A stretch of DNA of 35,176 nt, from positions 1 to 35,176 of IMG/VR virus record IMGVR_UViG_3300008964_000232. The stretch is one strand, 5' to 3'. The DNA is from a virus (Duplodnaviria; Caudoviricetes). Both the position numbers and the translations under genes were made by a program. Below are positions 14,778 to 33,273 of the stretch, piece by piece (the stretch's first letter is position 1; every line of letters starts with the position of its first letter). The notes below the pieces were generated by a model. That model was not told the origin of the DNA, searched no databases, and saw only the letters and a list, made by a program, of their open reading frames with translations.

Positions 14778-16928
14778 TTGGCAATTAAGGCGTATAATAG
14801 TAATACTGGCAATAGTATTATTGATACTAGTATTAAATTTGTTGAGGGCGACATGCTGGCATTTGATGCTAGAAAAAACTTGTTTGTTCGCACAACACGG
14901 GCAGAAATAGCAACCGTAGACTTAACTGGATACGCTACACTTGCACAAGTACAGTCACTGATAGACAATATAGATGGTGGCACTGCTACTACTATAGATT
15001 GGGCAAATGTTACTACCAAACCAACAATCCCAAGCATTGATGGGTTAGCAAGTGAAGCATATGTAACACAACAAATTGCGCTAAGTCAACCAGACTTAAC
15101 TTCATATTCTACTAAAACATATGTTGACACGGCTATCGCCGCAGCACTGGCTAGTGCGGGCAGTGGTGATCTTTCAACCTATTACACTAAAACCGAAGTA
15201 GACAATCTGTTAGCAAATTATCAGCCATCAATAGATCTATCAGGATATGCTACCACTGGTTATGTTACAAATCAACTAACTGCCTACCAACCAAAATTTG
15301 ATCTATCACAATACGCTACAAAGGCATATGTTGCTGGCGAAGTATTCAGCGGCGATTATAACGATTTAACAAACAAACCAACACTATTCAGCGGCAGTTA
15401 TAATGATTTAACAAACAAGCCAATTATCTTCAGTGGCAACTACGCCGACCTTTATAATCAGCCAATCATTCCAAGTATTGACGGATTGGCAAGCATTGCG
15501 TATGTTGATCAACAGATTGCAAACGTAGCCAGTGGTGGCAGTATTGATTTAAGTAGTTATGTAACTGAAACTGAACTAGCAACTGCCCTAGCTGGTTATC
15601 AACCAAGTGTTGACCTAACATCATACTACACAAAGACTGAAGTAGATGGTTTAATAACACCACACTTTAGTGGCGATTATACTGATCTAACCAATACGCC
15701 AACTATCCCAAGTTTAACTGGATATGCTACACAGGCATATGTAGATAGTGCAGTTGCAAACAGCAGTGGCGGTGGTAGTGTTGATTTAACTGGATATGCC
15801 ACACAAACATATGTGCAACAGCAAATCAGTGCAGCAACACTTGGAGTAATTGCAAACGTTGGCGACTTAAATGATGTTGCCATTGATACTAATCTTGACG
15901 CATTGCACCAAGCATTAATATGGAACGGTGTTAACAATCTCTGGGAAAACGTTGACCTAGAAGATACATTTGCTACAAAGGTTTATGTTACTGAACAGCT
16001 AGCAAACATTCTAAGTAACGGACAGATAACACTTGACGGTTATGCCACTGAGTCTTATGTAACACAAAAGCTACTGGAACGTGGTGATCACTTTAGTGGT
16101 AACTATAACGACCTAGTCAACCGTCCAATTCTTTTCAGTGGTGATTATCGTGATCTAATTAACGCACCAGCAGACAACAGCGATCTGAGACTTATGTTAG
16201 TTGGTGATGAACTACAGTTACTAAACATTGAGCCTGAACCAGATACCGTTATTAGTAGAATTACACTAGATGATCTAGGTACAGCGGTGTCAGCTTATAT
16301 TGACTACAATCAAGTAAGTAACTTACCAGACATTTTTAGTGGTGACTACAATGATCTAGTTAACCGCCCAATACTATTCAGTGGTAACTACAATGACCTA
16401 GCAAACAAGCCATACATTCCAAGTATTGCTGGCTTGGCTACTGAAACATATGTTAACAACAAACACGCTGAACCAACTATCTATGGTGATAAAACATTCA
16501 AAGGCAGCGTAACATTTGAAAGTTTCACACTGCAAAAAATTAGTACTGTTAGCCATACTGCCGCTATCAAGAATATGGTTATGGCGATCCGCACAACTAA
16601 TGCTATTCCAACAGAAGTACTATTAAATGGTGGCAGCAGAATTACTATTGCCAGTGGCACAACTGCGATGTTTAAAATTACGTTTGTTGCAACCAGCGGG
16701 GCTGACTCAGCAAGTTTTGTTGTACGTGGTATTATTGACAACAACAGTGCTGGCCTAAGGCTAATTGGTTCAAACATTACAGAGACAATTGCTGACAGCG
16801 ATCAAACTTGGTCAGGCGCGGCAAGTGCTAACATTGTAAACGATAGCTTAAAAATTGTAGTCACAGGCAGCGATGCAACCACAGTTGACTGGACAGTGTT
16901 TGTAGAACTAAATGAAGTAGTAAGATAA
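14778..16928 (+). CDS. repeat-rich fibre-like virion protein
   Basis: TTG start after a GGGGG SD; about 10-14 DLxxYATxxYV repeats, 8 FSGxYxDLxNxP repeats, beta-rich C-terminal domain. Confidence 0.75.
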   Translation: MAIKAYNSNTGNSIIDTSIKFVEGDMLAFDARKNLFVRTTRAEIATVDLTGYATLAQVQSLIDNIDGGTATTIDWANVTTKPTIPSIDGLASEAYVTQQIALSQPDLTSYSTKTYVDTAIAAALASAGSGDLSTYYTKTEVDNLLANYQPSIDLSGYATTGYVTNQLTAYQPKFDLSQYATKAYVAGEVFSGDYNDLTNKPTLFSGSYNDLTNKPIIFSGNYADLYNQPIIPSIDGLASIAYVDQQIANVASGGSIDLSSYVTETELATALAGYQPSVDLTSYYTKTEVDGLITPHFSGDYTDLTNTPTIPSLTGYATQAYVDSAVANSSGGGSVDLTGYATQTYVQQQISAATLGVIANVGDLNDVAIDTNLDALHQALIWNGVNNLWENVDLEDTFATKVYVTEQLANILSNGQITLDGYATESYVTQKLLERGDHFSGNYNDLVNRPILFSGDYRDLINAPADNSDLRLMLVGDELQLLNIEPEPDTVISRITLDDLGTAVSAYIDYNQVSNLPDIFSGDYNDLVNRPILFSGNYNDLANKPYIPSIAGLATETYVNNKHAEPTIYGDKTFKGSVTFESFTLQKISTVSHTAAIKNMVMAIRTTNAIPTEVLLNGGSRITIASGTTAMFKITFVATSGADSASFVVRGIIDNNSAGLRLIGSNITETIADSDQTWSGAASANIVNDSLKIVVTGSDATTVDWTVFVELNEVVR
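15344..15470 (+). repeat. 42-nt-period coding tandem repeat (three FSGxYxDLxNxP units)
   Basis: Units of the form ttcagcggc...tataa(c/t)gatttaacaaacaa(a/g)cca; further copies near 15665, 16090-16170 and 16335-16415. Confidence 0.75.
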
Positions 16929-20406: not shown

Positions 20407-21123
20407 ATGAAATATATTTTAAATTGGCCCAGTGGTGGAGGTGGTGATTTTATACTTGCCTTGATATCTATCGCCAAAGGATGGAATACAGAAATAATAC
20501 ATTTGCACAGATTAAATGCATGGAACCATATGTCTAGCAGTGTATTAAAATATCGTACATTTAAATATTACGATGATCTTGAAAAGCATCAAGAACTTTA
20601 TGATAATATGCCAGATGAACATGTATTGCAGACACATACATTGCGTGAATTAAAAATAAACACTGACGATAATACAACCGCCGTCAATATATACGTTGAT
20701 GGCATCTTTCAAGAAACGTTTATTGGAGTATTATGGAAATTTAAGACAGAGCCGATAGATGAAAACGAAGGTATCAATCACATTTACAAAGAGAATGGGT
20801 TCATTGAAGGCGCTGTTAATCTTAGTTATGAAAAATTAATAGTTCAACAAGATGAAACGGAAATAATGCGATTATTTAAAGCATTTAATACTGATATCGT
20901 CAATATTGATATTATCAAACACGCATTGTATCTATACCATAACAAAAATATTAAACTATTACAAATAGCACATAATGAAAACAATATTAATAGGAAAGCA
21001 TTTAGTGATATATTAAACATGGATGATTTAATATTTTCCCTTGAACAGCCCATGCGTAAAACATTAGAAGATCAAATATCACTGCGTGAGTATTTGCCAA
21101 GCACAGGATTTAAAATTAAATGA
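20407..21123 (+). CDS. sulfotransferase-like P-loop protein, paralog 1
   Basis: ILNWPSGGGGDFI, QTH, LSYEKL; AT-rich. Confidence 0.5.
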   Translation: MKYILNWPSGGGGDFILALISIAKGWNTEIIHLHRLNAWNHMSSSVLKYRTFKYYDDLEKHQELYDNMPDEHVLQTHTLRELKINTDDNTTAVNIYVDGIFQETFIGVLWKFKTEPIDENEGINHIYKENGFIEGAVNLSYEKLIVQQDETEIMRLFKAFNTDIVNIDIIKHALYLYHNKNIKLLQIAHNENNINRKAFSDILNMDDLIFSLEQPMRKTLEDQISLREYLPSTGFKIK

Positions 21124-21335
21124 GACGCCCTGGCTGGACATTTAATATTAAAGACAAGATACGGGTGTATCCTGACAGAACCAGGATAATCGAAAAAGAA
21201 ATTACCACATGGCTTCATAATAATACGTCTGGTTATTATGATTATAATTTTCCTGAACTTTATGTTTTCTTGGAAAATTCAGAAGATGCTATGATCTTCA
21301 AACTAAAATTTGGCGAATATATCGAGTCAGTATAA
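21120..21335 (+). CDS. hypothetical protein with EDAMIFKLKF motif
   Basis: ATGA overlap; motif shared with 2486..2689. Confidence 0.7.
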   Translation: MRRPGWTFNIKDKIRVYPDRTRIIEKEITTWLHNNTSGYYDYNFPELYVFLENSEDAMIFKLKFGEYIESV

Positions 21336-21338
21336 ATA
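21331..21338 (+). promoter_or_regulatory. late promoter
   Basis: Exact TATAAATA before the putative head-cargo block. Confidence 0.7.
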
Positions 21339-21361: not shown

Positions 21362-21586
21362 ATGAAAATAGACGAAATCTATAAACTAAAGCGTTTAGCT
21401 GGTATTATTGACAAAGAAGGCAATACTGTTGACGGTGACGACGAGTCAAACATCAGTATTGTTGGTTCTGAAAAGGGCCGCTATCAGCGTGAGAAAAACA
21501 TTAGGCCAGGAACTCCTGAGTGGTTTAAGCTCTGGTTCTCAAAGCCTTATCTGACAGGCGAAAAACCAATGGATAAAGATAAATGA
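21362..21586 (+). CDS. small late protein with MKIDEI leader
   Basis: GAGGG SD; leader shared with downstream genes. Confidence 0.75.
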   Translation: MKIDEIYKLKRLAGIIDKEGNTVDGDDESNISIVGSEKGRYQREKNIRPGTPEWFKLWFSKPYLTGEKPMDKDK

Positions 21587-23208
21587 GAATTACAGAAGTA
21601 GACACTCCAGTAACACAGCCACAACTTGATGCACTTGAAAAAGTGTTGGATCGAGTATTTTCTCAACTAGGAATTGATGTTGAATTTACACGACACTTCC
21701 TAGACCGTGTTAATGATGAACGTAACATTAAACAAATTACACTTAGTGAGCTTGGACAGCTATTTAAAAAAGAATTTATGAAATGGGGTAAACCCATTGC
21801 ACGTCTTGGCCCAGATGCTGAAGCCGTTATGAAGGACTTATCTAGCGATATTAATATTCCCTTCGCGCTAAACTGGAACAAGGGAAGCGGTATGCTTGAA
21901 CTGGTAGCCAAGACTGTAATGCGCAAAAAGAACTTCCGTACACCAAACAAAGAGTTTCCTGTTGAAAGTGTCATGGAAGCTGAAGGTAAAAATACACACC
22001 TTGAGCATTTGGAAGATGAAATTATTAATGCTGGCCATGATGGAGCACAGCGCATTATCGCTTACCTAAAAAGTTTAGAGAGTATGCTACAAGGACACGG
22101 TGGTAAAGGAACAAACGTTACCGTTAAGTGGGATGGCGCACCAGCAATTATTTGTGGTATTGATCCAGAAGATGGCAAGTTCTTTGTAGGCACCAAGGGC
22201 GTGTTTGCTAAAAGTCCAAAGCTAATCAAATCAGTGCAAGATGTTGAACAGTTCTTCCCAGATCAACAGGAACAAGGCGATCGTGCAAATCTACGTAACA
22301 AACTAAAAATTACGTTTACTAGCCTAAGCAAGCTAGGCATAGAGGGCGTTATGCAAGGCGATCTATTGTTTACTCCAGACAGTTTAAAAACAGTTGATAT
22401 TGCTGGTGATTCATACGTAGCATTTAAGCCAAACACCATTACATACGCAGTACCACTGGGTAGTGATTTGGCGACACGTATTCAAAACAGTGCAATGGGT
22501 ATTATTTTCCATACACGTTACAGCGGCGGTGAAACACTGGCTGACATGAGTGCAAGTTTTGATGTAGATGTTAACAAGTTTAAAAATGCATCTGGTATCT
22601 TTGTTGACGATGCTTATTACAAAGACTTAACTGGCGTTGCTACACTAACGACACAGGAAGATGCTGCACTGCGTAAAGCTATCGCAGATGCTGAAAGTTA
22701 TTTAAGCACACTTGATGATCGTACATTTGGTCTACTAAGCAACAGTCCAATCCAAAGTATTGGGGTTGAGCTAAAAGCACACATCAACAGCTATGTACGT
22801 GGAGGTAGTTTTGAACAGGATCCACAGAAATTTGTTGCTGACTTTGTAAAGCGTGTAAACGAAAAAGCAGCGAAGAAAATGGCTGGACTGAAAACAGGTC
22901 CAGAGGGTGCCGCAGGCCAGCGCCTGGCACAAGCAACAGAACAATCCGTACAATGGGTTAACGACAACACTGAACAACTTGTCGCTATGTATGGATTGTA
23001 TATGAGAATTATTGCCGCAAAATTGTTAATTGTTAAAAAACTACGCGGTATTGGTAGTATTGAAAGTTTCTTGCAACAGGGAGACGGCAGCTACAAAGTG
23101 ACATCACCAGAAGGTTATGTCGCAATTGACCATATGGGTAATGCAGTAAAGCTCGTTGACCGACTAGAGTTTAGTGCAGCCAACTTTGGTGATAAAGAAT
23201 TTGGTTAA
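21583..23208 (+). CDS. fusion of a RegB/RelE-like domain and an ATP-dependent ligase-like nucleotidyltransferase (DUF6267-like)
   Basis: N domain EFTRHFLDR...VAKTVMRK; linker PVESVME; C domain TVKWDG (I), MQGDLL (III), EGYV (IV), VKLV (V). Confidence 0.6.
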   Translation: MRITEVDTPVTQPQLDALEKVLDRVFSQLGIDVEFTRHFLDRVNDERNIKQITLSELGQLFKKEFMKWGKPIARLGPDAEAVMKDLSSDINIPFALNWNKGSGMLELVAKTVMRKKNFRTPNKEFPVESVMEAEGKNTHLEHLEDEIINAGHDGAQRIIAYLKSLESMLQGHGGKGTNVTVKWDGAPAIICGIDPEDGKFFVGTKGVFAKSPKLIKSVQDVEQFFPDQQEQGDRANLRNKLKITFTSLSKLGIEGVMQGDLLFTPDSLKTVDIAGDSYVAFKPNTITYAVPLGSDLATRIQNSAMGIIFHTRYSGGETLADMSASFDVDVNKFKNASGIFVDDAYYKDLTGVATLTTQEDAALRKAIADAESYLSTLDDRTFGLLSNSPIQSIGVELKAHINSYVRGGSFEQDPQKFVADFVKRVNEKAAKKMAGLKTGPEGAAGQRLAQATEQSVQWVNDNTEQLVAMYGLYMRIIAAKLLIVKKLRGIGSIESFLQQGDGSYKVTSPEGYVAIDHMGNAVKLVDRLEFSAANFGDKEFG

Positions 23209-23918
23209 TGGAACATTATTTGGTTGTATACATGACAGGCCATTCTGGGCAATGGCTTACGTGGTTTATTGATCAACATAAAAATTTTCCAAAATATAAA
23301 ACATACCTTGAGTGTAATGAAAACGGCGCCTGTGATTATAAATCTCCTGGCACACATTGGCTTAATTCTACAGTTGATAGCTATCCAGATCATGAGTCAG
23401 ATGGTGAGTTTGATGTATCAAATTTTGATAGTAGTTTTGAAACATATACAAAAAGTTGGATACCATTATATACACAGGATATATCGTCTACAAAAAATGC
23501 ACTTCAGTTAATTGAATATCACGAATTGTGGATGAAGTCTAAAGACGAAATATCTGCTATCGTCAATGAGATAAATCCTGCAGGAATAATTGTTGTTTAT
23601 ATAGATCCCAGCAACACATGGACGACCCCTATTGAAAATAGATCACATAATTTATTTAAAAATGTAGCGCCCGCATGGGCTACGATAGAAACAACAAAAA
23701 CTATAACATGGGAATGGTATTCAGAGATTTATGTTGGTAGATTTTTTGATTTTCTTTCTGACAAATATAGATTACATTATTTGAATATTGGTAATATATT
23801 AGATTGTGATATTAATGAATATAAGTCATTATTGGAATTCATTGATGAGGAACCTATTAATAATTACGAGTATCTTACTAAGGATATGATAGAAAAGGTT
23901 TATAAAAAATATGTCTGA
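23208..23918 (+). CDS. sulfotransferase-like protein, paralog 2
   Basis: LVVYMTGHSGQWLTWFIDQH; C-terminal EYKSLLEFI-x3-P shared with the next gene. Confidence 0.5.
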   Translation: MEHYLVVYMTGHSGQWLTWFIDQHKNFPKYKTYLECNENGACDYKSPGTHWLNSTVDSYPDHESDGEFDVSNFDSSFETYTKSWIPLYTQDISSTKNALQLIEYHELWMKSKDEISAIVNEINPAGIIVVYIDPSNTWTTPIENRSHNLFKNVAPAWATIETTKTITWEWYSEIYVGRFFDFLSDKYRLHYLNIGNILDCDINEYKSLLEFIDEEPINNYEYLTKDMIEKVYKKYV

Positions 23919-24546
23919 AATTTTTATTTTAGGTTGTTACAGCGGATCTCCTATTAGACAACTTACACATTTTGTTAATAGGCACGAAGGAATGTTTTGC
24001 GCTGAGATAGAAGCAACCGGTATATATGGAAACACTGAAACAGTGTGGTATTATGGTCGTGACACTTTTGAAGAATATACTGCTTCAATAAATTACGACA
24101 ACAGTAAATCTTTAGCAGTATCACTTCGCCCTGAACCGGACCTATGGGCTGATATTTTTGCTGAAGAATTTAGACCAATTGGAGTTGGAAGTAATGTATC
24201 AAAAATACTAATATTTACTATCCCAAACTCGCCAGAATCAGATGCTATGTTTGACCGTATCTGGAAAATATCAGAAGTATCAGATGTATTGTATTATGAA
24301 TCTATACCTATAATGATATCAACAAATGCTGAGTATAATTTAGAAATACCTGAACGATTTGAAATATTTCAGTCAGCACACCAATTTGAGTACGGGTTCG
24401 TTGATATGATAAAGATTTTAAACAAGGACGAAACTGAATATCATAAAATGTTAGACTTTCTTGGATTGAAACCTTTAGAAAACTGGACTAAGATAATTGA
24501 TTATGTCAACGATCAATTCTTTAATACAAGTTTAAAAACATTTTAA
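23911..24546 (+). CDS. sulfotransferase-like protein, paralog 3
   Basis: ILGCYSGSPIRQLTHFVNRH; EYHKMLDFLGLKP. Confidence 0.45.
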   Translation: MSEIFILGCYSGSPIRQLTHFVNRHEGMFCAEIEATGIYGNTETVWYYGRDTFEEYTASINYDNSKSLAVSLRPEPDLWADIFAEEFRPIGVGSNVSKILIFTIPNSPESDAMFDRIWKISEVSDVLYYESIPIMISTNAEYNLEIPERFEIFQSAHQFEYGFVDMIKILNKDETEYHKMLDFLGLKPLENWTKIIDYVNDQFFNTSLKTF

Positions 24547-24558
24547 ATAAATAGTAAT

Positions 24559-24759
24559 ATGAAGATTAGTGATATCATATCAGAAGGTGTGGGTCGAATA
24601 GTGAGTGGAGTAAACACTACTGTAGACGTTAAGCCAGGTGAGACTGAACGCCAAGCCAAGAAGTTTTTTGGCGGCGATGGTAAACCAAAGTTGCTGGGCG
24701 GCAGTAGCGTTCACAAGCTATACAATATGGGATTAGCAGAGCAGCGTAAAGGAACCTAG
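24559..24759 (+). CDS. small putative internal head protein (MKISDIISE leader)
   Basis: ATAAATA (24547-24553) 5 nt before the ATG; I-S-E site. Confidence 0.7.
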   Translation: MKISDIISEGVGRIVSGVNTTVDVKPGETERQAKKFFGGDGKPKLLGGSSVHKLYNMGLAEQRKGT

Positions 24760-24760
24760 C

Positions 24761-24880
24761 ATGTATACAGACGCATTTGTAGAGTTTTATGTAGCAAAGA
24801 TTAAAGAACACGAAGCAGCGAGGATGTCTACAAATGATCGAAATATGTTTTGGCGAGAATACTGGGAAAATAAAAAATGA
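24761..24880 (+). CDS. 39-aa hypothetical protein (not in ORF track)
   Basis: AAAGGA SD; MYTDAFVEFYVAKIKEHEAARMSTNDRNMFWREYWENKK*; ATGA overlap with the next gene. Confidence 0.65.
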   Translation: MYTDAFVEFYVAKIKEHEAARMSTNDRNMFWREYWENKK

Positions 24881-26328
24881 AAATAAATGAATTTACTGAG
24901 GGCAAGAACCCACTATTTAAGATTAATAAGTTTCTGGACGATAAAAAGAAACGTGAAGAGTATGCTCGCAAACTACAGCAACAGTCAGTGAAAACGGATA
25001 ATAACGTCAACGAAGACTTTGGTTCAATTCCAGCACTCACCGACCTTATTGTTATGGCGGTTGTTGGGCAGACCACAGTAGCAGCATTGAAGGCAGCATA
25101 CAAGACAGGAAAGTATGCTCTAAAGTTGAAGCGACTTGCCGACAAAGCAGGTGTAAAACTCAACAATGCTGTTATGGGTGAATCAAATCCATTTACTGAT
25201 GCCAGAATGAATGCTATTAAAGCAGGTAAAAAAGAGTTTACTGTAAACGGTAAAAAGTATCAGGTAACTGGTGATACAAGTGATGAACGAGAAGCTATAG
25301 AATTAGACGAAGACATACCAGACATGGCACCGGTATATAGAAACATAAAATCAGGTATAAATGATGCATATGGTACAATAGACGAACTTGATTTTATAAT
25401 CTTAAAATTACAAAAAACCATTGCAGAAGAATATGGGGAAGATGATGTACCAGATGAGTATCTAAAACCATTGAATTTCATTACTAATACGAGCCAAAAA
25501 ATTACTAGTGCATTACGTCATATTGCAGATATTGCAAAAAATGATGAAATATTTGAAGCAGTAAACCGTGATGAATATACAGCAACCCTAGCAGCAAAAC
25601 AAAACGATAAATTCTTTGCGGCAGCACTAGCAGCACTAGATCGTCTTGTAAAGAGCGATCCACGTGGTCAAGACGTTGGCGGTTATGCTTTTGATATTGC
25701 ACGTGCATTTAATGGTGTTAATGGTAAAGAACTAGTAGCGGCGTACAGTGCAAGTGCAATGAACGAAGAAAGCGGTAAAACTATCCAAGTAAGTGAATTA
25801 GACACTCTTAAACTTCCAGATATTGCAGTTGGCGACGAAGTGATGGTGGGTAAGTTTAAAAATCGTAAAGCAGAAGTCAAAGGCTTTAGCAAAGATGCCC
25901 ATAATCAACCAGTATTAAAAACAACCAAGGGTGATCAAAAACTATTTAAACCTAGATTATCTAAACTAACCTCAATGAACGAGGAAAACGGTAAAGAGAT
26001 GCTGCAAATCTTTAGAGGTATGCATCACGATGCTGGCATGAATAAAAATATGGATCGTTACATACAATCCCATGATTGGAAACTAGGGGATTTTACGCCC
26101 GACATGTTCCCAAGCGAAGAAGAGTTTTTTGATTACGACGATCCATTTGATCGTATTATTGATATTGACTACAGCCACCGTGTAAATCTATCACAACCAA
26201 TTATTGTTGGTCCACAGTTTAGCGATGGCAAGTATAGTGTTATTGATGGCAATCACCGTGCAGCATCAGCACAAAAGATGGGTAAAACTATCCAAGCATA
26301 TTTTCCTATTAATACAAAAGAAAAATGA
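24877..26328 (+). CDS. modular putative head polyprotein with a C-terminal ParB/Srx-like domain
   Basis: MKINEFTE leader; VNE, MGE, LDE, IFE, MNE linkers; PIIV...YSVIDGNHR. Confidence 0.7.
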   Translation: MKINEFTEGKNPLFKINKFLDDKKKREEYARKLQQQSVKTDNNVNEDFGSIPALTDLIVMAVVGQTTVAALKAAYKTGKYALKLKRLADKAGVKLNNAVMGESNPFTDARMNAIKAGKKEFTVNGKKYQVTGDTSDEREAIELDEDIPDMAPVYRNIKSGINDAYGTIDELDFIILKLQKTIAEEYGEDDVPDEYLKPLNFITNTSQKITSALRHIADIAKNDEIFEAVNRDEYTATLAAKQNDKFFAAALAALDRLVKSDPRGQDVGGYAFDIARAFNGVNGKELVAAYSASAMNEESGKTIQVSELDTLKLPDIAVGDEVMVGKFKNRKAEVKGFSKDAHNQPVLKTTKGDQKLFKPRLSKLTSMNEENGKEMLQIFRGMHHDAGMNKNMDRYIQSHDWKLGDFTPDMFPSEEEFFDYDDPFDRIIDIDYSHRVNLSQPIIVGPQFSDGKYSVIDGNHRAASAQKMGKTIQAYFPINTKEK

Positions 26329-26714: not shown

Positions 26715-26957
26715 ATGTCACGCAAAAAATTTAATCCAGACGACCTTGACGAAACAGTTGGTCCTATGAATCATGTAGCAAAGGAAGACGCTATGGTTTG
26801 GGCAGGCGTTAAAAATCCAGACAACATGAACGAATACGAAAAGCGTACAGTAGTAGTCAAAAAGCAAAATATTAAGAAGTCTACAGTTAAAAATGAACGT
26901 AGACTAAGTAAAAACATAATCAAAAATTTAGACGACAGTAATAATGATAGAAAATAA
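26715..26957 (+). CDS. basic hypothetical protein
   Basis: GAGG SD; 80 aa. Confidence 0.7.
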   Translation: MSRKKFNPDDLDETVGPMNHVAKEDAMVWAGVKNPDNMNEYEKRTVVVKKQNIKKSTVKNERRLSKNIIKNLDDSNNDRK

Positions 26958-26977
26958 TGATAGAAAATAATGATAGA
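26940..26977 (+). repeat. 13-nt tandem repeat x3 across a stop/start junction
   Basis: AATAATGATAGAA AATAATGATAGAA AATAATGATAGA. Confidence 0.9.
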
Positions 26978-27709
26978 CAAGTAATATTTGTATCTAACCC
27001 AATTGGTCATGGCGGTAACTATTTTGCATGGGCGTTACAGGACGCGATGGGTTATGATTACTATATATTAAAAGCAGGTCCTAACCGAGATTTTACCGCA
27101 GGAGAAAAAGACGATACTACTTTATCATTGGATAGGGATCCTTATTGGACAAATTCAGGTGTTGTTGGAAACAATTTACGTTTAATGAGTTTTCTATTAG
27201 ACCCTTACAAACACGAAATATTTGAAAGAGAAAAATACGACAATGAGATAGCTGGTGCTGATGATTCTAATCGTACATCTAGAATTTATAATTTCGTAAT
27301 AGAACAAATAAAATTGATGATAAATTCTAAAAAATTTATATTTTTAGATAATATTAAAACAGTAATAATACAAAACGAGCATTTTATACTAATGCCAGAA
27401 ATAGAGAATAATGATATGTTATTCTTTATTACAGATGCTGACAGTTATTTAAAACGTTTTAATATTGAACGATTTAATAGTGAAAGACCACAGCAGTATT
27501 TAGAAACTATGATAGGCTGGTTTAATCATATAGATAAAGATAATATGAATCCATATCATTTCATAATTAATATGGAGGATATGATTTGTAATAAAAACTA
27601 TGACTTTATTGAACATCTTAAAGAAAAAGATCGTGTAGACGTGGACAAATTACACAAAAATATGCTCGTATGGCATGAGTTTATACTCGAAAAGAACTTA
27701 AATAAGTGA
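26957..27709 (+). CDS. sulfotransferase-like protein, paralog 4
   Basis: IFVSNPIGHGGNYFAWAL, NEH, INMEDM; AT-rich. Confidence 0.5.
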   Translation: MIENNDRQVIFVSNPIGHGGNYFAWALQDAMGYDYYILKAGPNRDFTAGEKDDTTLSLDRDPYWTNSGVVGNNLRLMSFLLDPYKHEIFEREKYDNEIAGADDSNRTSRIYNFVIEQIKLMINSKKFIFLDNIKTVIIQNEHFILMPEIENNDMLFFITDADSYLKRFNIERFNSERPQQYLETMIGWFNHIDKDNMNPYHFIINMEDMICNKNYDFIEHLKEKDRVDVDKLHKNMLVWHEFILEKNLNK

Positions 27710-27727
27710 GTTAGCATAAATACATAC

Positions 27728-27940
27728 ATGAAGATATCTGATATTTTAAACCTAAACGAAGACGCATCTGCGGGTGCTACTAGCGCAGGCAACATTGCTA
27801 GCGTAAATTTTCCTTTATTCGGTGATAAAAAAATGATACGACGAGCTGTTGACCCTAACGGATACTTGGGCAGCGGTAAACAAAAAAAGCGTAGCACAGG
27901 CTACGTACACCCAGTTAAAGTTAGAGGTAACGACAAATGA
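27728..27940 (+). CDS. small putative internal head protein (MKISDILNLNE leader)
   Basis: ATAAATA (27716-27722) 5 nt before the ATG; L-N-E followed by DASAGATSAG. Confidence 0.7.
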   Translation: MKISDILNLNEDASAGATSAGNIASVNFPLFGDKKMIRRAVDPNGYLGSGKQKKRSTGYVHPVKVRGNDK

Positions 27941-29025
27941 ACGTAGGCAAAATTGATAGAACAATTATGAAAGCCCTAGACATGGTTGAGAAGTTAGAAA
28001 AACTTTTCGCTAACAACGGTGCTTTTGAAAACGCAGTCATGGAAATAGACGGCGACATCAGCTACTTTGGCGATGTAAGAAAAAAGTTAGCACAACTATA
28101 TGTAGACATTGAAGACCTACATATGGGTGCAGTAGGACACAACATGGATGAGAGTGTAACAGAGAGTGTTAAGCTAACAGAAGGTGTATTGGACGGCGAT
28201 GATGAAGATGGGTTTATGGCTCGCAGTCAACTATACTTCCTGGCAAAAGATGCTATCAGCCTACACGGCATGATTAGCGATCGTGATAATCTAGAACCAT
28301 GGGTGCAGTCAAAGATTACCACAGCAGCAAATGATATGGAAGCAGTTCGTCGTTATACTGAATACAATAAATCACAAGCAGACAGTCAACTACCAGTACC
28401 AGTTGAACAGCCAGCTGAGCCAGAGATGGACGTAGAAGAAGGTTGGGAAACACTTCCAGCAGTTGATGCAGACCGTTATGGTGAGCGGCCTGGTCTAGAA
28501 GGTCCATTTCAAACACGTGTTGGCAAAGTAGTATACTACGATCCAAAAGCTGGCAAGTATTATGACCCAGACAGTGATCACTATCTAGAGTATGATGAAT
28601 GGCGTCAGCTAGACATGCCAGATACTCCACTGCGTAATGAATCTGTCGCAGAATCAAAAGAACGTCCTTACGTTTGCGTTCATGCTAAAAAAGGCAAGCA
28701 TAGTTGCACAGCAGGATCATCATACGAAGCAGCGCAAAAAGCAGCTAAAGCATGGGGTCTAAAATCAACAGCAGGTATCGACGCACACTTAGCGGATGTT
28801 GAAAAAGTGGCAGAAGGCAAGAAAAAGCAAATCGATCGCAACGGCGATGGCAAAAACGATTGGGAAGATGTAAAACTTGCTCGTAAGGCAGCAGCCGCAA
28901 AAGCACAAAAGAAACCAGTTGAAGAAGGCATGAACTTTGATGATAATCGTGATGGCGATCTAAAGCAGACAGCCGCTGATATGTTTTCACATGCTAAAAA
29001 AGCAGCAGCTAAGAAGGTGAAATAA
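27937..29025 (+). CDS. modular putative head polyprotein
   Basis: MDE-SVTE-SVKLTE, VEE and VAE linkers; YYDP-x4-YYDP module; EF-hand-like DRNGDGKNDWED. Confidence 0.7.
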   Translation: MNVGKIDRTIMKALDMVEKLEKLFANNGAFENAVMEIDGDISYFGDVRKKLAQLYVDIEDLHMGAVGHNMDESVTESVKLTEGVLDGDDEDGFMARSQLYFLAKDAISLHGMISDRDNLEPWVQSKITTAANDMEAVRRYTEYNKSQADSQLPVPVEQPAEPEMDVEEGWETLPAVDADRYGERPGLEGPFQTRVGKVVYYDPKAGKYYDPDSDHYLEYDEWRQLDMPDTPLRNESVAESKERPYVCVHAKKGKHSCTAGSSYEAAQKAAKAWGLKSTAGIDAHLADVEKVAEGKKKQIDRNGDGKNDWEDVKLARKAAAAKAQKKPVEEGMNFDDNRDGDLKQTAADMFSHAKKAAAKKVK

Positions 29026-29026
29026 G

Positions 29027-30622
29027 ATGCGTTTTGATAATATTAATGAGGGCGTAGCAAAAATTGCTTGCACAAAGTGTGACGAGGTTTCAACTGCAAA
29101 GGCATGGGAAAAGAACAATGGGTTTTGTCCTAAGTGCAAGACATCTTCTCAAGGTGTTGCTGAATCAACAATTGTTGAAGTTTCAAACGCAGTAAAGGAT
29201 CAGTTGGGCAACATCGACTTGTCAATTCGTGATTGGACAAGACGTTGGAAAAATAAGAGTGCTGGCAATCCAAACGATATGAAAGCACCTCAGAAAATCC
29301 AGGATCTGAAAGCTCAAAAAGCTGCGCTCATGAAAAAGCATGGCATCAGTGAAGATGTTAAACGTATGGCAGGCAATCAGCAATTGTATCCACAGCAAGG
29401 TATAACAGAAGCAAAACTTTCAACAGAACAACGAGACAGACTTGATGATTTAATAGATGAGCTTCGTTATCTAACTATGCCCTACATTGATTGGGATGAC
29501 TTTGATAATGTAGAAGCTGCGCGTAAAGTTATAGATACTATTCGTAGTGAGTTTGGCGACAAGATTGCAGCTGAAATTGAAAAAGGATCAGAAGAAATTT
29601 GGCATGGTTATAGACCTAATGTTAGACAAGGATACGATAAACTAGATAATAAGAAAAGCACTAGAGTTACCAAGTCAGGCAAAGCCAACAAAGCAGATAT
29701 CAGCGCACTAAAAAGTCAAATTAAAAGACATAGAGGTTACTCAAAAGATCCAAGCAGACTGCCAGAATCTGACAATGTACAAGAATCACTGACACTAGAC
29801 TATTCACGTTATATGCGTTCACATGGTAAAAAGCCACGCCCTGGTTCAGGGGTGTGGATGTTTACAACAAAAGACATGGGTGAACCAGACGAAAAAGAGA
29901 TTTTCCAATTCCAAGGCAACTTGGCTGACGCAAAACGTGCAGCGGCCAAATGGGCAAAAAGCCAAGGTGCATATCGTTTTTACGTAATGGAAAAAACCGT
30001 TACTGAAGATGACTGCCAGTGTGCAAATGGAGAAACAACACGAGATCAACTGCTAGATATGTTAGAAAATGCTATGATCAGTATTGAGCAGGATCTAGAA
30101 AGCGGCAAGCTAATGGATGCACACCAGCTAGCATTGGGTGAGCAATATTTGGTATATGAAGCACTGTATAACAAAATTAGCAGTGGCGCTGATTTAGGCG
30201 AAAGTGCAAATCAAAAACTAGACGAGATTGATTGGGGTACTGTTGCTAACGTTGGTATGACAGTGGCACCACTGCTACTAGGTCCAGTTGGTATTGGCGG
30301 CGCACTTGCGGGAATGGCTGGCCGTGCAGCACTTGGCGCACTAGCACGTCGCGGCGGTATGGCGCTTGCAAAGCGTGGACTACAAAAGGTAGCACCAAAC
30401 CTAATGCAGCGTTTGGGACAGACAAAAGCTGGTCGTGCTGCAACTACAGCAGGCGGACAAGCCGCAGTAGGTGTATTAAATCCAGCAGCGGATGGTCCAG
30501 ATGTAGATCGTCCAGATTCAAACGCTGCCGCAGGGCAGGATTTACTGGGCCTAGCGGCGAAGTCAGGTTTAAGTTCAACAGACTTGGAACTTGTAAAAAA
30601 AGCAGTAGCAGCTCGCAAGTAA
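29027..30622 (+). CDS. modular putative head polyprotein
   Basis: MRFDNINE leader; CxxC-x14-CxxC zinc ribbon; VAE, IVE, ISE, ITE, VQE, VTE, LDE linkers; Gly/Ala-rich hydrophobic C-terminal module. Confidence 0.7.
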   Translation: MRFDNINEGVAKIACTKCDEVSTAKAWEKNNGFCPKCKTSSQGVAESTIVEVSNAVKDQLGNIDLSIRDWTRRWKNKSAGNPNDMKAPQKIQDLKAQKAALMKKHGISEDVKRMAGNQQLYPQQGITEAKLSTEQRDRLDDLIDELRYLTMPYIDWDDFDNVEAARKVIDTIRSEFGDKIAAEIEKGSEEIWHGYRPNVRQGYDKLDNKKSTRVTKSGKANKADISALKSQIKRHRGYSKDPSRLPESDNVQESLTLDYSRYMRSHGKKPRPGSGVWMFTTKDMGEPDEKEIFQFQGNLADAKRAAAKWAKSQGAYRFYVMEKTVTEDDCQCANGETTRDQLLDMLENAMISIEQDLESGKLMDAHQLALGEQYLVYEALYNKISSGADLGESANQKLDEIDWGTVANVGMTVAPLLLGPVGIGGALAGMAGRAALGALARRGGMALAKRGLQKVAPNLMQRLGQTKAGRAATTAGGQAAVGVLNPAADGPDVDRPDSNAAAGQDLLGLAAKSGLSSTDLELVKKAVAARK

Positions 30623-31598: not shown

Positions 31599-32030
31599 AT
31601 GAGTGATATGAGAAAATGGATTGATGCTGTCAATGAAAAGAAGGATGATCCATGCTGGGACGGTTATCGTCAGCTGGGTATGAAGAAAAAAGGCGGCAAA
31701 AAAGTCCCAAACTGTATTCCTGAAGATGTTGAAGAGTTTACACTAGAAGAAGCTGAGGAAATCTTTGGCGATCTAGATGAGACACTAACTGAAGCAGAAT
31801 ATCAGGGACGCACTGTTAAACTAAACAAGCCTATGCAGGGCGATGTAAAGAAATTCAAAGTATACGTAAAGAATGAAAAGGGCAACGTAGTTAAAGTTAA
31901 CTTCGGTGATCCTGACATGCGTATTAAAAAATCAAATCCAGCACGCCGCAAGAGTTTCCGTGCGAGACACAACTGTGACAATCCTGGACCAAAGACCAAA
32001 GCACGTTACTGGAGTTGCAGGGCCTGGTAA
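31599..32030 (+). CDS. two-module putative head protein (PCWxGY module + DUF6321-like domain)
   Basis: ATAAATA 31572-31578, AAGGAG SD; DPCWDGY...VPNC; LTE-AEYQG...VNFGD...RRKSFRARHNC...ARYWSC. Confidence 0.75.
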   Translation: MSDMRKWIDAVNEKKDDPCWDGYRQLGMKKKGGKKVPNCIPEDVEEFTLEEAEEIFGDLDETLTEAEYQGRTVKLNKPMQGDVKKFKVYVKNEKGNVVKVNFGDPDMRIKKSNPARRKSFRARHNCDNPGPKTKARYWSCRAW

Positions 32031-32445: not shown

Positions 32446-33273
32446 ATGATCATTAATATTATAGGTTTGCCTAGAACTGGAACCACTGTATTGTATCAGT
32501 CAGTTTTTTCCGGAATAAACAAATGTGATATGTTAGTTAAGCGAGATACATTTTTAGATAGATGGGATGAACCTTGGATATTTAGTAAACAGGATAGAGG
32601 TAATCCTGAATTTATTAAAAATTTGTCATTGAAAATAGATGAAGCAATAGAGTTGGGCACAACTGGCCATTTGGTAATCAAAACACACTATGGACACTTG
32701 TCTGATCTCAAAAAATATGTTCCAGAGTCGTATGAAAAGCTATTATCTGTAGAAACGTACAACATAAAGATATTTAGAGCCAACATATTTGATTCAACGT
32801 TGAGTAATATGATACTTACAAAAGCAAATATAGAAGGACCTGAAAAATTCTTAACCGTTCTAAATTCAGCAATACCAGACATGTCAGAGGAACAGGTCAT
32901 AGAATCTATCAAATCTATATCTTATGAAATCGACGAGGCGGAGTTTTTAAAGTTTTTTGACGGTTATATCTTTTCCCATTGTGAGATGTTGAGAAATCAT
33001 TTAAATTTATCTGTAGATGATTATGTTCTATATGAAAATCTTCCTAAAACAATCAAGGGCATCTGGGAAAGTTTAAAGCTATCATTAGATGACAGATTTA
33101 AATTTGATATAAATGATAGTTTTGATGTGGTAACAAAAAAATCTTTCTACAGTAAAAAAGATCTGATCAAAAATTATGACAATTTACACGCCGCCGTCTC
33201 AAAATATAATGGTGAGTATAGTTCAATGACATTGACTGATGGATTCTGGACTACTAAAGTTGTTGACTTTTGA
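32446..33273 (+). CDS. PAPS-dependent sulfotransferase-like protein, paralog 5
   Basis: 5'-PSB loop IIGLPRTGTT, EP, VIKTH, 3'-PB-like FRANIFDSTLS, LYENL. Confidence 0.7.
   Translation: MIINIIGLPRTGTTVLYQSVFSGINKCDMLVKRDTFLDRWDEPWIFSKQDRGNPEFIKNLSLKIDEAIELGTTGHLVIKTHYGHLSDLKKYVPESYEKLLSVETYNIKIFRANIFDSTLSNMILTKANIEGPEKFLTVLNSAIPDMSEEQVIESIKSISYEIDEAEFLKFFDGYIFSHCEMLRNHLNLSVDDYVLYENLPKTIKGIWESLKLSLDDRFKFDINDSFDVVTKKSFYSKKDLIKNYDNLHAAVSKYNGEYSSMTLTDGFWTTKVVDF

Follow-up and report, generated by a model that had tools for sequence, protein, structure and literature searches.

The 35,176-nucleotide stretch of viral DNA analyzed here (IMG/VR record IMGVR_UViG_3300008964_000232, a 35 kb virus record; hereafter the window) contains, at 21583..23208 on the plus strand, a gene coding for a 541-aa two-domain protein. 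Our results indicate that the N-terminal part very likely has the fold of the T4 endoribonuclease RegB, that the C-terminal part, DUF6267, has with still greater likelihood the fold of a ligase, and that the protein is fairly probably packaged in the phage head and cut at a Glu-ending linker. The whole chain, in which a late head-cargo polyprotein is packed, cut and injected and its two enzymes then act separately, seems to us about equally likely to be right or wrong. The gene was delimited by the open reading frame (ORF) call, its homologues and matching contigs, and contains the strings EFTRHFLDR (residues 34-42), PVESVME (126-132), KWDG (182-185), QGDLL (258-262), EGYV (510-513), and VKLV (522-525). 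The fusion is real, since three IMG/VR viral contigs carry the whole gene (98-100% identity) and full-length homologues exist at 96, 90, 55, and 54% identity; an assembly slip is thereby ruled out.

The RegB/RelE (BECR)-fold domain, a predicted metal-independent endoribonuclease, spans aa 10-128 (21610..21966, plus strand). It was modelled alone by AlphaFold2 from 88 sequences (pLDDT 86.2), because its confidence was low in the full-length model. In the VIA comparison its best solved match was T4 RegB (2hx6; Z 7.6, root-mean-square deviation (rmsd) 4.5, 116 of 128 residues aligned), and the match extended over almost all of the domain, the extra first helix included (model 3-128 on chain 5-153). 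RelE-family RNases followed (Z 6.2-5.0), ParE rows were present, and a second fold comparison also gave RelE. Among predicted viral structures, Foldseek retrieved a phage protein annotated as a site-specific RNA endonuclease (RegB) (E 6.3e-6, TM 0.66). An initial annotation had noted that the N-terminal ~125 aa contain EFTRHFLDR, resembling KYSQHLLDR of T4 RegB, and this observation holds: both strings are present, and His38 (21694-21696) lies in the H-x-L-D-R helix as the counterpart of RegB His48. Across 331 unique RegB-like domains, H38, R47, N48, P93, and K110 never vary, and R42 and T/S111 are each kept in 330. These residues fit the BECR pattern of a His in the first (N-terminal) helix along with a C-terminal Thr or Ser, as described in the available text of PMC5512222. 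On this model, the RegB fold is very likely, and the N-terminal part is probably an active RNase.

The domain also departs from T4 RegB in several respects. Identity is 9%, and residues 10-123 match only PHROGs 23027 and 14518, both of unknown function. The catalytic histidines of T4 RegB are H48 and H68; the enzyme cuts at GGAG under stimulation by S1, its products have 5'-OH and cyclic phosphate ends, and it is encoded by a stand-alone early gene (available text of PMC3014915). It is made early rather than carried in the virion, whereas the domain studied here is a module of a late, leader-bearing polyprotein and is predicted to be carried. RegB in its proper family sense was thus rejected as an assignment, as there was no PF10715 or profile match: among the families listed, PF10715 matched neither the query nor at least two of the 88 members at E 5, and none of the PBECR or MuF-C Pfam families matched at least two of them either. 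In five related contigs the RegB Pfam model missed the module and gave one weak match located elsewhere (E 0.005, in G005). As a separate observation, small uncharacterized proteins of Atu_ph07, vB_PcaM_CBB, PTm1, and VH7D match the N-terminal model in BFVD (E <2e-4), which suggests a wider unrecognized RegB-fold family in cultured large phages. ESM Atlas returned only unnamed viral clusters, apart from one low-scoring RNA_ligase cluster (0.75) that serves as a lead only.

The C-terminal domain, DUF6267 (aa 136-535; 21988..23187, plus strand), is a predicted OB-less covalent nucleotidyltransferase core, with Lys182 (22126-22128) as the predicted adenylated residue. It matches Pfam PF19782 with E 1.5e-99 and 334 bits against a cut-off of 27, over positions 1-372 of 376. 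The AlphaFold2 model, built from 70 sequences, is confident over residues ~140-530. When it was compared with 48,161 solved chains in VIA, six RNA ligases headed the list (Z 7.2-8.6, rmsd 3.7-4.5, 175-199 residues aligned): Naegleria 5cot (8.6), Trypanosoma REL1 (1xdn, 8.1), T4 Rnl2 (2hvq/1s68; 7.7 and 7.5), and fungal Trl1 (6n0t; 7.5 and 7.2). DNA ligases stood lower, at Z 6.3 or less. Twelve residues are invariant in 70 of 70 homologues (K182, W183, D184, G185, K205, Q258, G259, D260, E510, G511, D526, and R527) and K523 is kept in 69, with a mean column identity of 42%; like H38 and R42 of the other domain, these motifs are conserved beyond chance. The ligase-type residues occur in the order K182-W-D-G, K205, Q-G-D260, F/W309-H310, E510-G, and K523, which we take to represent nucleotidyltransferase motifs I, Ia, III, IIIa, IV, and V, respectively. 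The earlier claim that KWDG, QGD, EG and the final Lys follow the order of motifs I, III, IV, and V is therefore confirmed, and structure prediction with fold search supported the two folds that had been expected for the two halves. Based on the model and on these invariant residues in the right order, a ligase fold is highly likely, and DUF6267 resembles a ligase core outside the Rnl1 and Rnl2 families.

Compared with the OB-less RNA ligases, whose predicted core and motif order it shares, DUF6267 has only 9-15% identity, QGD in place of GE/FE, K-x-V-D-R in place of K-x-K, and no C-terminal domain; the protein ends 18 residues past K523, with neither an OB nor a Rnl2-type C-terminal domain. 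In addition, a helical insertion of ~130 residues (aa 357-490; 22651..23052, plus strand) separates motif IIIa from motif IV, judging from the secondary structure of the model, and may be a substrate-recognition element. ATP-dependent DNA ligases and mRNA capping enzymes require an OB domain after motif V. DUF6267 was accordingly rejected as a DNA ligase proper, and as a Rnl1 or Rnl2 proper it lacks the motif III Glu, the motif V K-x-K and profile similarity.

Several results weigh against these two fold assignments. The fold scores of both domains are middling, the tool itself warning that Z <8 is common, and helical bundles are interleaved below rank 6 in the DUF6267 list. Foldseek searches of the PDB gave no row with E <0.001 for either model, and sequence searches against solved structures, with the whole protein and with both profiles, found nothing relevant. 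In hhalign, the N-terminal profile aligned with T4 RegB at a non-significant probability of 0.5, and DUF6267 with Rnl2 and Rnl1 at 0.05 and 0.59, also not significant; a loose Pfam scan of 70 DUF6267 members included no ligase family among the 25 families listed. The second RegB His (H68) has no conserved counterpart in the alignment of RegB-like domains. In motif III, DUF6267 has Asp (QGD) where T4 Rnl2 and Rnl1 have Glu (GEF/FEF), and in motif V it has K-L-V-D-R, without a second Lys, against KCK and KIK; these correspondences were set by motif order and not by residue-level superposition.

The two domains are joined by PVE-SVME-A (aa 126-133; 21958..21981, plus strand), where junction statistics predict a prohead-protease cut after E128 and/or E132, giving pieces of ~14 and ~44 kDa. 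A Glu ends the RegB-like module in 132 of 140 proteins in which at least 40 residues follow, and in 0 of 6 in which the module is terminal (149 of 150 proteins parsed, 3 intermediate cases excluded). In a second set, of loci, the counts were 47 of 51 with a domain following versus 0 of 13 terminal. Similarly, in 91 of 119 homologues an [ILVM]xE stands no more than 14 residues ahead of DUF6267, versus 9.6 in control windows, and a leader-type [ILVM]xE precedes DUF6267 in 48 of the 52 dereplicated loci (of 65) that fit the start pattern. A narrower motif, [ILV][NTSM]E, chosen after the data had been seen, follows the module in 41 of 140 proteins against ~10. T4 gp21 cleaves after L/I-X-E, according to the available text of PMC9026906, and the capsid proteins of five relatives have L-x-E-(A/S/N) near residue 40 of their N-termini.

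The gene itself starts with a short basic leader, MRITE (21583..21597, plus strand), whose I-x-E ending fits the gp21 motif and which resembles the starts of other window ORFs; it is possibly a head-targeting, cleaved tip. Many unfused DUF6267 forms start like the T4 peptide MKTYQEFIAE. Cultured phages, too, have leader-bearing forms: Melnitz gp16 and gp31, phiM12 gp458, and PANV1 gp42. Upstream of the operon, at a distance of 23 nt, lies TATAAATA (21331..21338, plus strand), which we label late-promoter-like by what we take to be the T4 late consensus; its core is kept in L001-L003. TAAATA is not enriched overall in the window (43 versus 52.8 expected), and the information lies in its position alone: of the 25 copies on the plus strand, 8 sit 8-50 nt before an ORF start, versus 1.3 expected. 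More short basic Glu-ending leaders were found in window ORFs at 24559-26328, 27937-30622, and 31599-32030 (MKISDIISE, MKINEFTE, MRFDNINE, and MSDMRKWIDAVNE). Some of these ORFs lie behind TAAATA, and they are mosaics of modules that are fused to the RegB-like domain in relatives; they probably code for additional head cargo polyproteins.

The protease itself was sought in relatives. Five related jumbo contigs (222-343 kb), selected for close relatives of the N-terminal domain, all encode a gp23-type capsid protein and a gp21-type protease, so the window most likely derives, judging from these sequences, from a jumbo T4-related phage. Taken together, the junction Glu, the [ILVM]xE motifs, the promoter site and the relatives' protease and capsid sites give comparative support to the cleavable linker and the late, virion-delivered role suggested in the initial annotation, and packaging with cleavage is fairly probable. 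A precedent is offered by the T4 internal proteins IPI-III and Alt, which are targeted to the capsid, cleaved by gp21 and injected (available text of PMC9026906). The likeness would lie in a late-promoter-like signal, a short basic Glu-ending leader and L/I-X-E-like junctions that both fit loosely, and the gp21-type protease in relatives of the present phage. The differences are a leader of fewer than 10 residues, a predicted internal cut that would free two enzymes, and packaging that is here predicted from sequence.

We propose that the 541-aa polyprotein would be made late and loaded into the prohead, where a gp21-type protease would cut the linker after E128/E132 into the ~14 and ~44 kDa pieces. 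Both pieces would be injected with the DNA and act independently. The ~14 kDa piece may cleave mRNA via His38 and a basic patch of K110, R114, and K115, leaving 5'-OH and cyclic phosphate ends, and could damp or redirect host translation in the first minutes, ahead of any phage gene expression. The ~44 kDa piece would adenylate Lys182 and seal breaks with 5'-phosphate and 3'-OH ends. In this scheme the fusion would serve co-loading, and the ligase would not need to act on the cuts of the RNase, which are not directly resealable without healing enzymes (available text of PMC7824862 and PMC3014915).

The substrate of the ligase half is the first point at which another explanation has to be weighed. 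RNA is more probable than DNA in the jumbo lineage, because an ordinary ATP-dependent DNA ligase is present together with DUF6267 in 5 of 5 related jumbo contigs; none of the five has an NAD-dependent ligase. The lack of an OB domain and the higher rank of RNA ligases over DNA ligases point the same way. Alternatively, the ligase half may act on DNA, sealing nicks in the injected genome or working in repair with a PolX-like or nuclease partner, with the RNase-like half as unrelated cargo. We consider this unlikely. Two findings nevertheless lend DNA some weight as a substrate. Each of five cultured T4-like phages (W01-W05) has either DUF6267 or a conventional ATP-dependent DNA ligase, never both (3 versus 2), and in 36 of 65 dereplicated loci DUF6267 is situated downstream of the replicative helicase, as named from annotated records, at a distance of up to 4 kb. 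The KxDG motif and the DNA-ligase rows among the fold matches are also compatible with it.

A further alternative is a dedicated cut-heal-seal system, in which a particular host or phage RNA would be cut by the RNase, its ends healed by co-packaged kinase and phosphatase, and the pieces then joined by the ligase, either newly arranged or to undo the cut later. Some features of the related genomes suggest such a link. The fusion occurs in at least three architectures, with the RNase directly before the ligase in every case seen, and its recurrence in this order, at 5 changes on the wider ligase tree described below, could signal a functional connection. Partner domains were scanned in 75 of the other 149 RegB-like proteins, longer ones picked by the author. 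The Pfam matches were to a P-loop kinase (10 proteins), DUF5661 (9), lysozyme-type domains (4), a CCA/poly(A) polymerase (3), a HAD nucleotidase, which is a phosphatase (2), and superoxide dismutase; 44 proteins had no match. The P-loop kinase family, which matches a polynucleotide-kinase PHROG (E 1.8e-7), is present in 3 of 5 related contigs. A separate DUF6267 gene lies within 10 kb in 17 of 80 RegB-like loci, and T4 RegB is reported to work with Pnk (available text of PMC3014915).

Other data argue that the two domains do not travel together, although the fusion recurs. The RegB-like module has 1,300 representatives at 50% identity clustering, and DUF6267 is found in 1 of the best 150 RegB-like proteins, which is the 96% relative. 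Of the 80 RegB-like loci, 1 is fused (the phage studied here) and 62 have no DUF6267 gene within the stretch covered by the locus. In two sets of DUF6267 loci (n=80 and n=79), 2 and 1 are fused. The module is present in 19 of 119 parsed sequences from the best 120 DUF6267 homologues, a ranking that favors full-length matches, and in 5 of 120 long DUF6267 forms. In the five jumbo contigs both genes are present 68-205 kb apart. The cultured-phage records contain the module 16 times and DUF6267 465 times, and at least 460 of these 465 have no RegB-like match; in Melnitz the two are found as separate genes, and in phiM12 and PANV1 the module stands without DUF6267. Some partners, such as the lysozymes, superoxide dismutase and DUF5661, are unrelated to RNA. 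Partners also change between close relatives: the window RNase-like domain shares 92% identity with its counterpart in P0121, where the partner is a different one, and an 85% identical domain in G001 is fused to modules present in window ORF 24877. On a quick ligase tree of 45 rows the fused forms occupy two positions, and a wider ligase tree requires 5 changes to account for them; on the RNase-domain tree they are spread like shuffled labels (6 changes for 6 rows), with no co-clustering of the two domains. The wider trees were made with FastTree from 61/285 and 47/239 dereplicated rows, and the RNase-domain alignment offered few columns.

Because of this rare co-occurrence, the distant genes, the varied partners and the scattered fused forms, the domains are not considered to be co-travelling. 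A dedicated RNase-ligase pairing is probably absent, and the cut-heal-seal system is doubtful. Of the cut-and/or-seal pair proposed in the initial annotation, both predicted folds stand and the fixed pairing falls. An obligate cut-and-seal pair was rejected on the 1 in 150 co-occurrence, the separate genes and the need of RegB-type ends for healing. A looser version, in which the heads of aquatic jumbo and T4-related phages carry a kit of RegB-type nuclease, kinase, phosphatase, CCA enzyme and DUF6267 ligase, the nuclease being a phage counterpart of virion host shut-off, is tentative and on the improbable side; so is its corollary that host RNA would be rewritten before the first phage transcript, the present gene supplying cutter and sealer as one precursor. 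The T4 system of Pnkp and Rnl1 against PrrC is comparable in its ATP-dependent ligase-fold enzyme, and related polyproteins have kinase-like and phosphatase-like cargo. It differs in that there is here no Rnl1 profile match and no fixed kinase-phosphatase partner, and the T4 system has no RNase. A separate case is P0255 (1244 aa), with two RegB-like copies, of which the second is degenerate and apparently interrupts a GGAAGH-type ligase-like domain, with TEKTDG on one side and INLEII on the other; the insertion may be genuine or the product of a chimeric assembly.

The protein could also be made late and stay in the cytoplasm, unpackaged and uncut, the Glu motifs being domain-boundary sequence. 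Virion data from cyanophages speak for this and against packaging. The DUF6267 protein S-SZBM1_141 is missing from Table 1 of the S-SZBM1 virion (PMC9146016), T4-GC71, also DUF6267, from Table S8 of the S-SM1, S-PM2, and Syn9 virions (PMC3037559), and a remote DUF6267 homologue from Table 3 of the S-CREM2 virion (PMC10665884). The motif V-M-E relaxes L/I-X-E and also occurs inside both domains. MRITE is atypical and only a loose match, being shorter than the 10-residue MKTYQEFIAE of T4 IPII and IPIII, and the window, a 35 kb fragment, has no protease or capsid gene. The three printed cyanophage DUF6267 sequences have no leader, which explains but does not remove their absence from virions and shows that DUF6267 can function unpackaged. 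A leader-bearing cytidylyltransferase next to cyanophage DUF6267 is among the proteins reported from the S-SZBM1 and S-SM1 virions in the available parts of these studies, so the cyanophage data are consistent with the leader rule. The literature yielded no virion proteome for a phage that bears the fusion, and the PANV1 paper, as far as available, contains no virion proteomics. Nevertheless, a Glu is found only where a domain follows, leader-type motifs before DUF6267 far exceed background, and both the protease and fitting sites in the capsid proteins are present in relatives; a purely cytoplasmic role is therefore very unlikely.

It is equally improbable that either fold, or both, has a role other than that of a nucleic-acid enzyme. 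In this reading the RegB-fold domain would do no more than bind ribosomes or RNA, or would inhibit another target as ParE-type proteins do, and DUF6267 would pass NMP on to a protein or small molecule, acting with its frequent neighbor, the HIGH nucleotidyltransferase. The ParE rows, the deviant motifs III and V, a cytidylyltransferase-like neighbor in 13 of 65 DUF6267 loci (fused in some long forms) and an unknown ~250-aa protein after DUF6267 in 24 of 65 would fit, but the invariant His/Arg/Lys set is placed like the RegB His48 helix and the BECR His and C-terminal Thr (available text of PMC5512222), and K182, K205, and E510 are invariant. The ~250-aa protein (L024:4306-5082 and homologues) follows directly in 18 of these loci and is the most constant partner of DUF6267 in jumbo phages. 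It has no Pfam or PHROG match and no match in the window, and a similar sequence is fused to DUF6267 in 628-663-aa forms.

The reading of the gene as an injected head-cargo polyprotein has a parallel in the phage polyvalent proteins, in which BECR RNase modules (PBECR) occur in multidomain, probably virion-packaged proteins, so that the theme of injected BECR RNases is already in print (available text of PMC5512222). Those modules are found in MuF and portal fusions, whereas the present ones lie in T4-related head-cargo proteins with Glu-ending junctions. In a full-text literature search, with most subscription journals outside its reach, no paper mentioned DUF6267 and none combined cyanophage, RNA ligase, and structure prediction; RegB-like terms retrieved only an unrelated sensor kinase. 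The main text of a jumbo-phage review and of an NAD/ADPr survey, as far as available, does not mention RegB or BECR, and their supplements could hold annotation. Nor did this search find any printed account of the RegB-like cargo module, widespread as it is (1,300 clusters).

With these results, two large phage families that lacked annotation, the RegB-fold module (~1,300 clusters at 50% identity) and DUF6267 (465 cultured records), gain an identity that can be tested. If the proposal is right, an RNase that enters with the DNA could influence host translation or RNA-based defence ahead of phage expression. To our knowledge, there is no demonstrated case of a phage RNase co-injected with DNA. 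In addition, the Glu rule at junctions offers a way to split the 'hypothetical' polyproteins of these phages into real cargo units.

Other features of the window deserve mention. The first gene of the operon is a 74-aa ORF of unknown function (21362..21586, plus strand) that overlaps the start of the 541-aa gene. Pfam and PHROG scans of it gave no match, and its homologues L253 and L252 lie directly 5' of unfused DUF6267 genes in G001 and G002. According to Pfam, the window also encodes a ClpA-type ATPase, DnaJ, PhoH, UvdE, and an amidase. ARAGORN identified a tRNA-Ser with anticodon ACT (194-284), which is unusual for bacteria, beside a tRNA-Met (112-187). A 716-aa protein at 14778-16928, with internal LFSGDYNDL-type repeats and unknown-function PHROG matches, is possibly a fibre or decoration protein. 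Finally, family-less low-GC ORFs with N-terminal glycine-rich, P-loop-like strings, sulfotransferase-like by eye only, flank the 541-aa gene (20407-21123, 23208-24546, 26957-27709, and 32446-33273) and vary between relatives.

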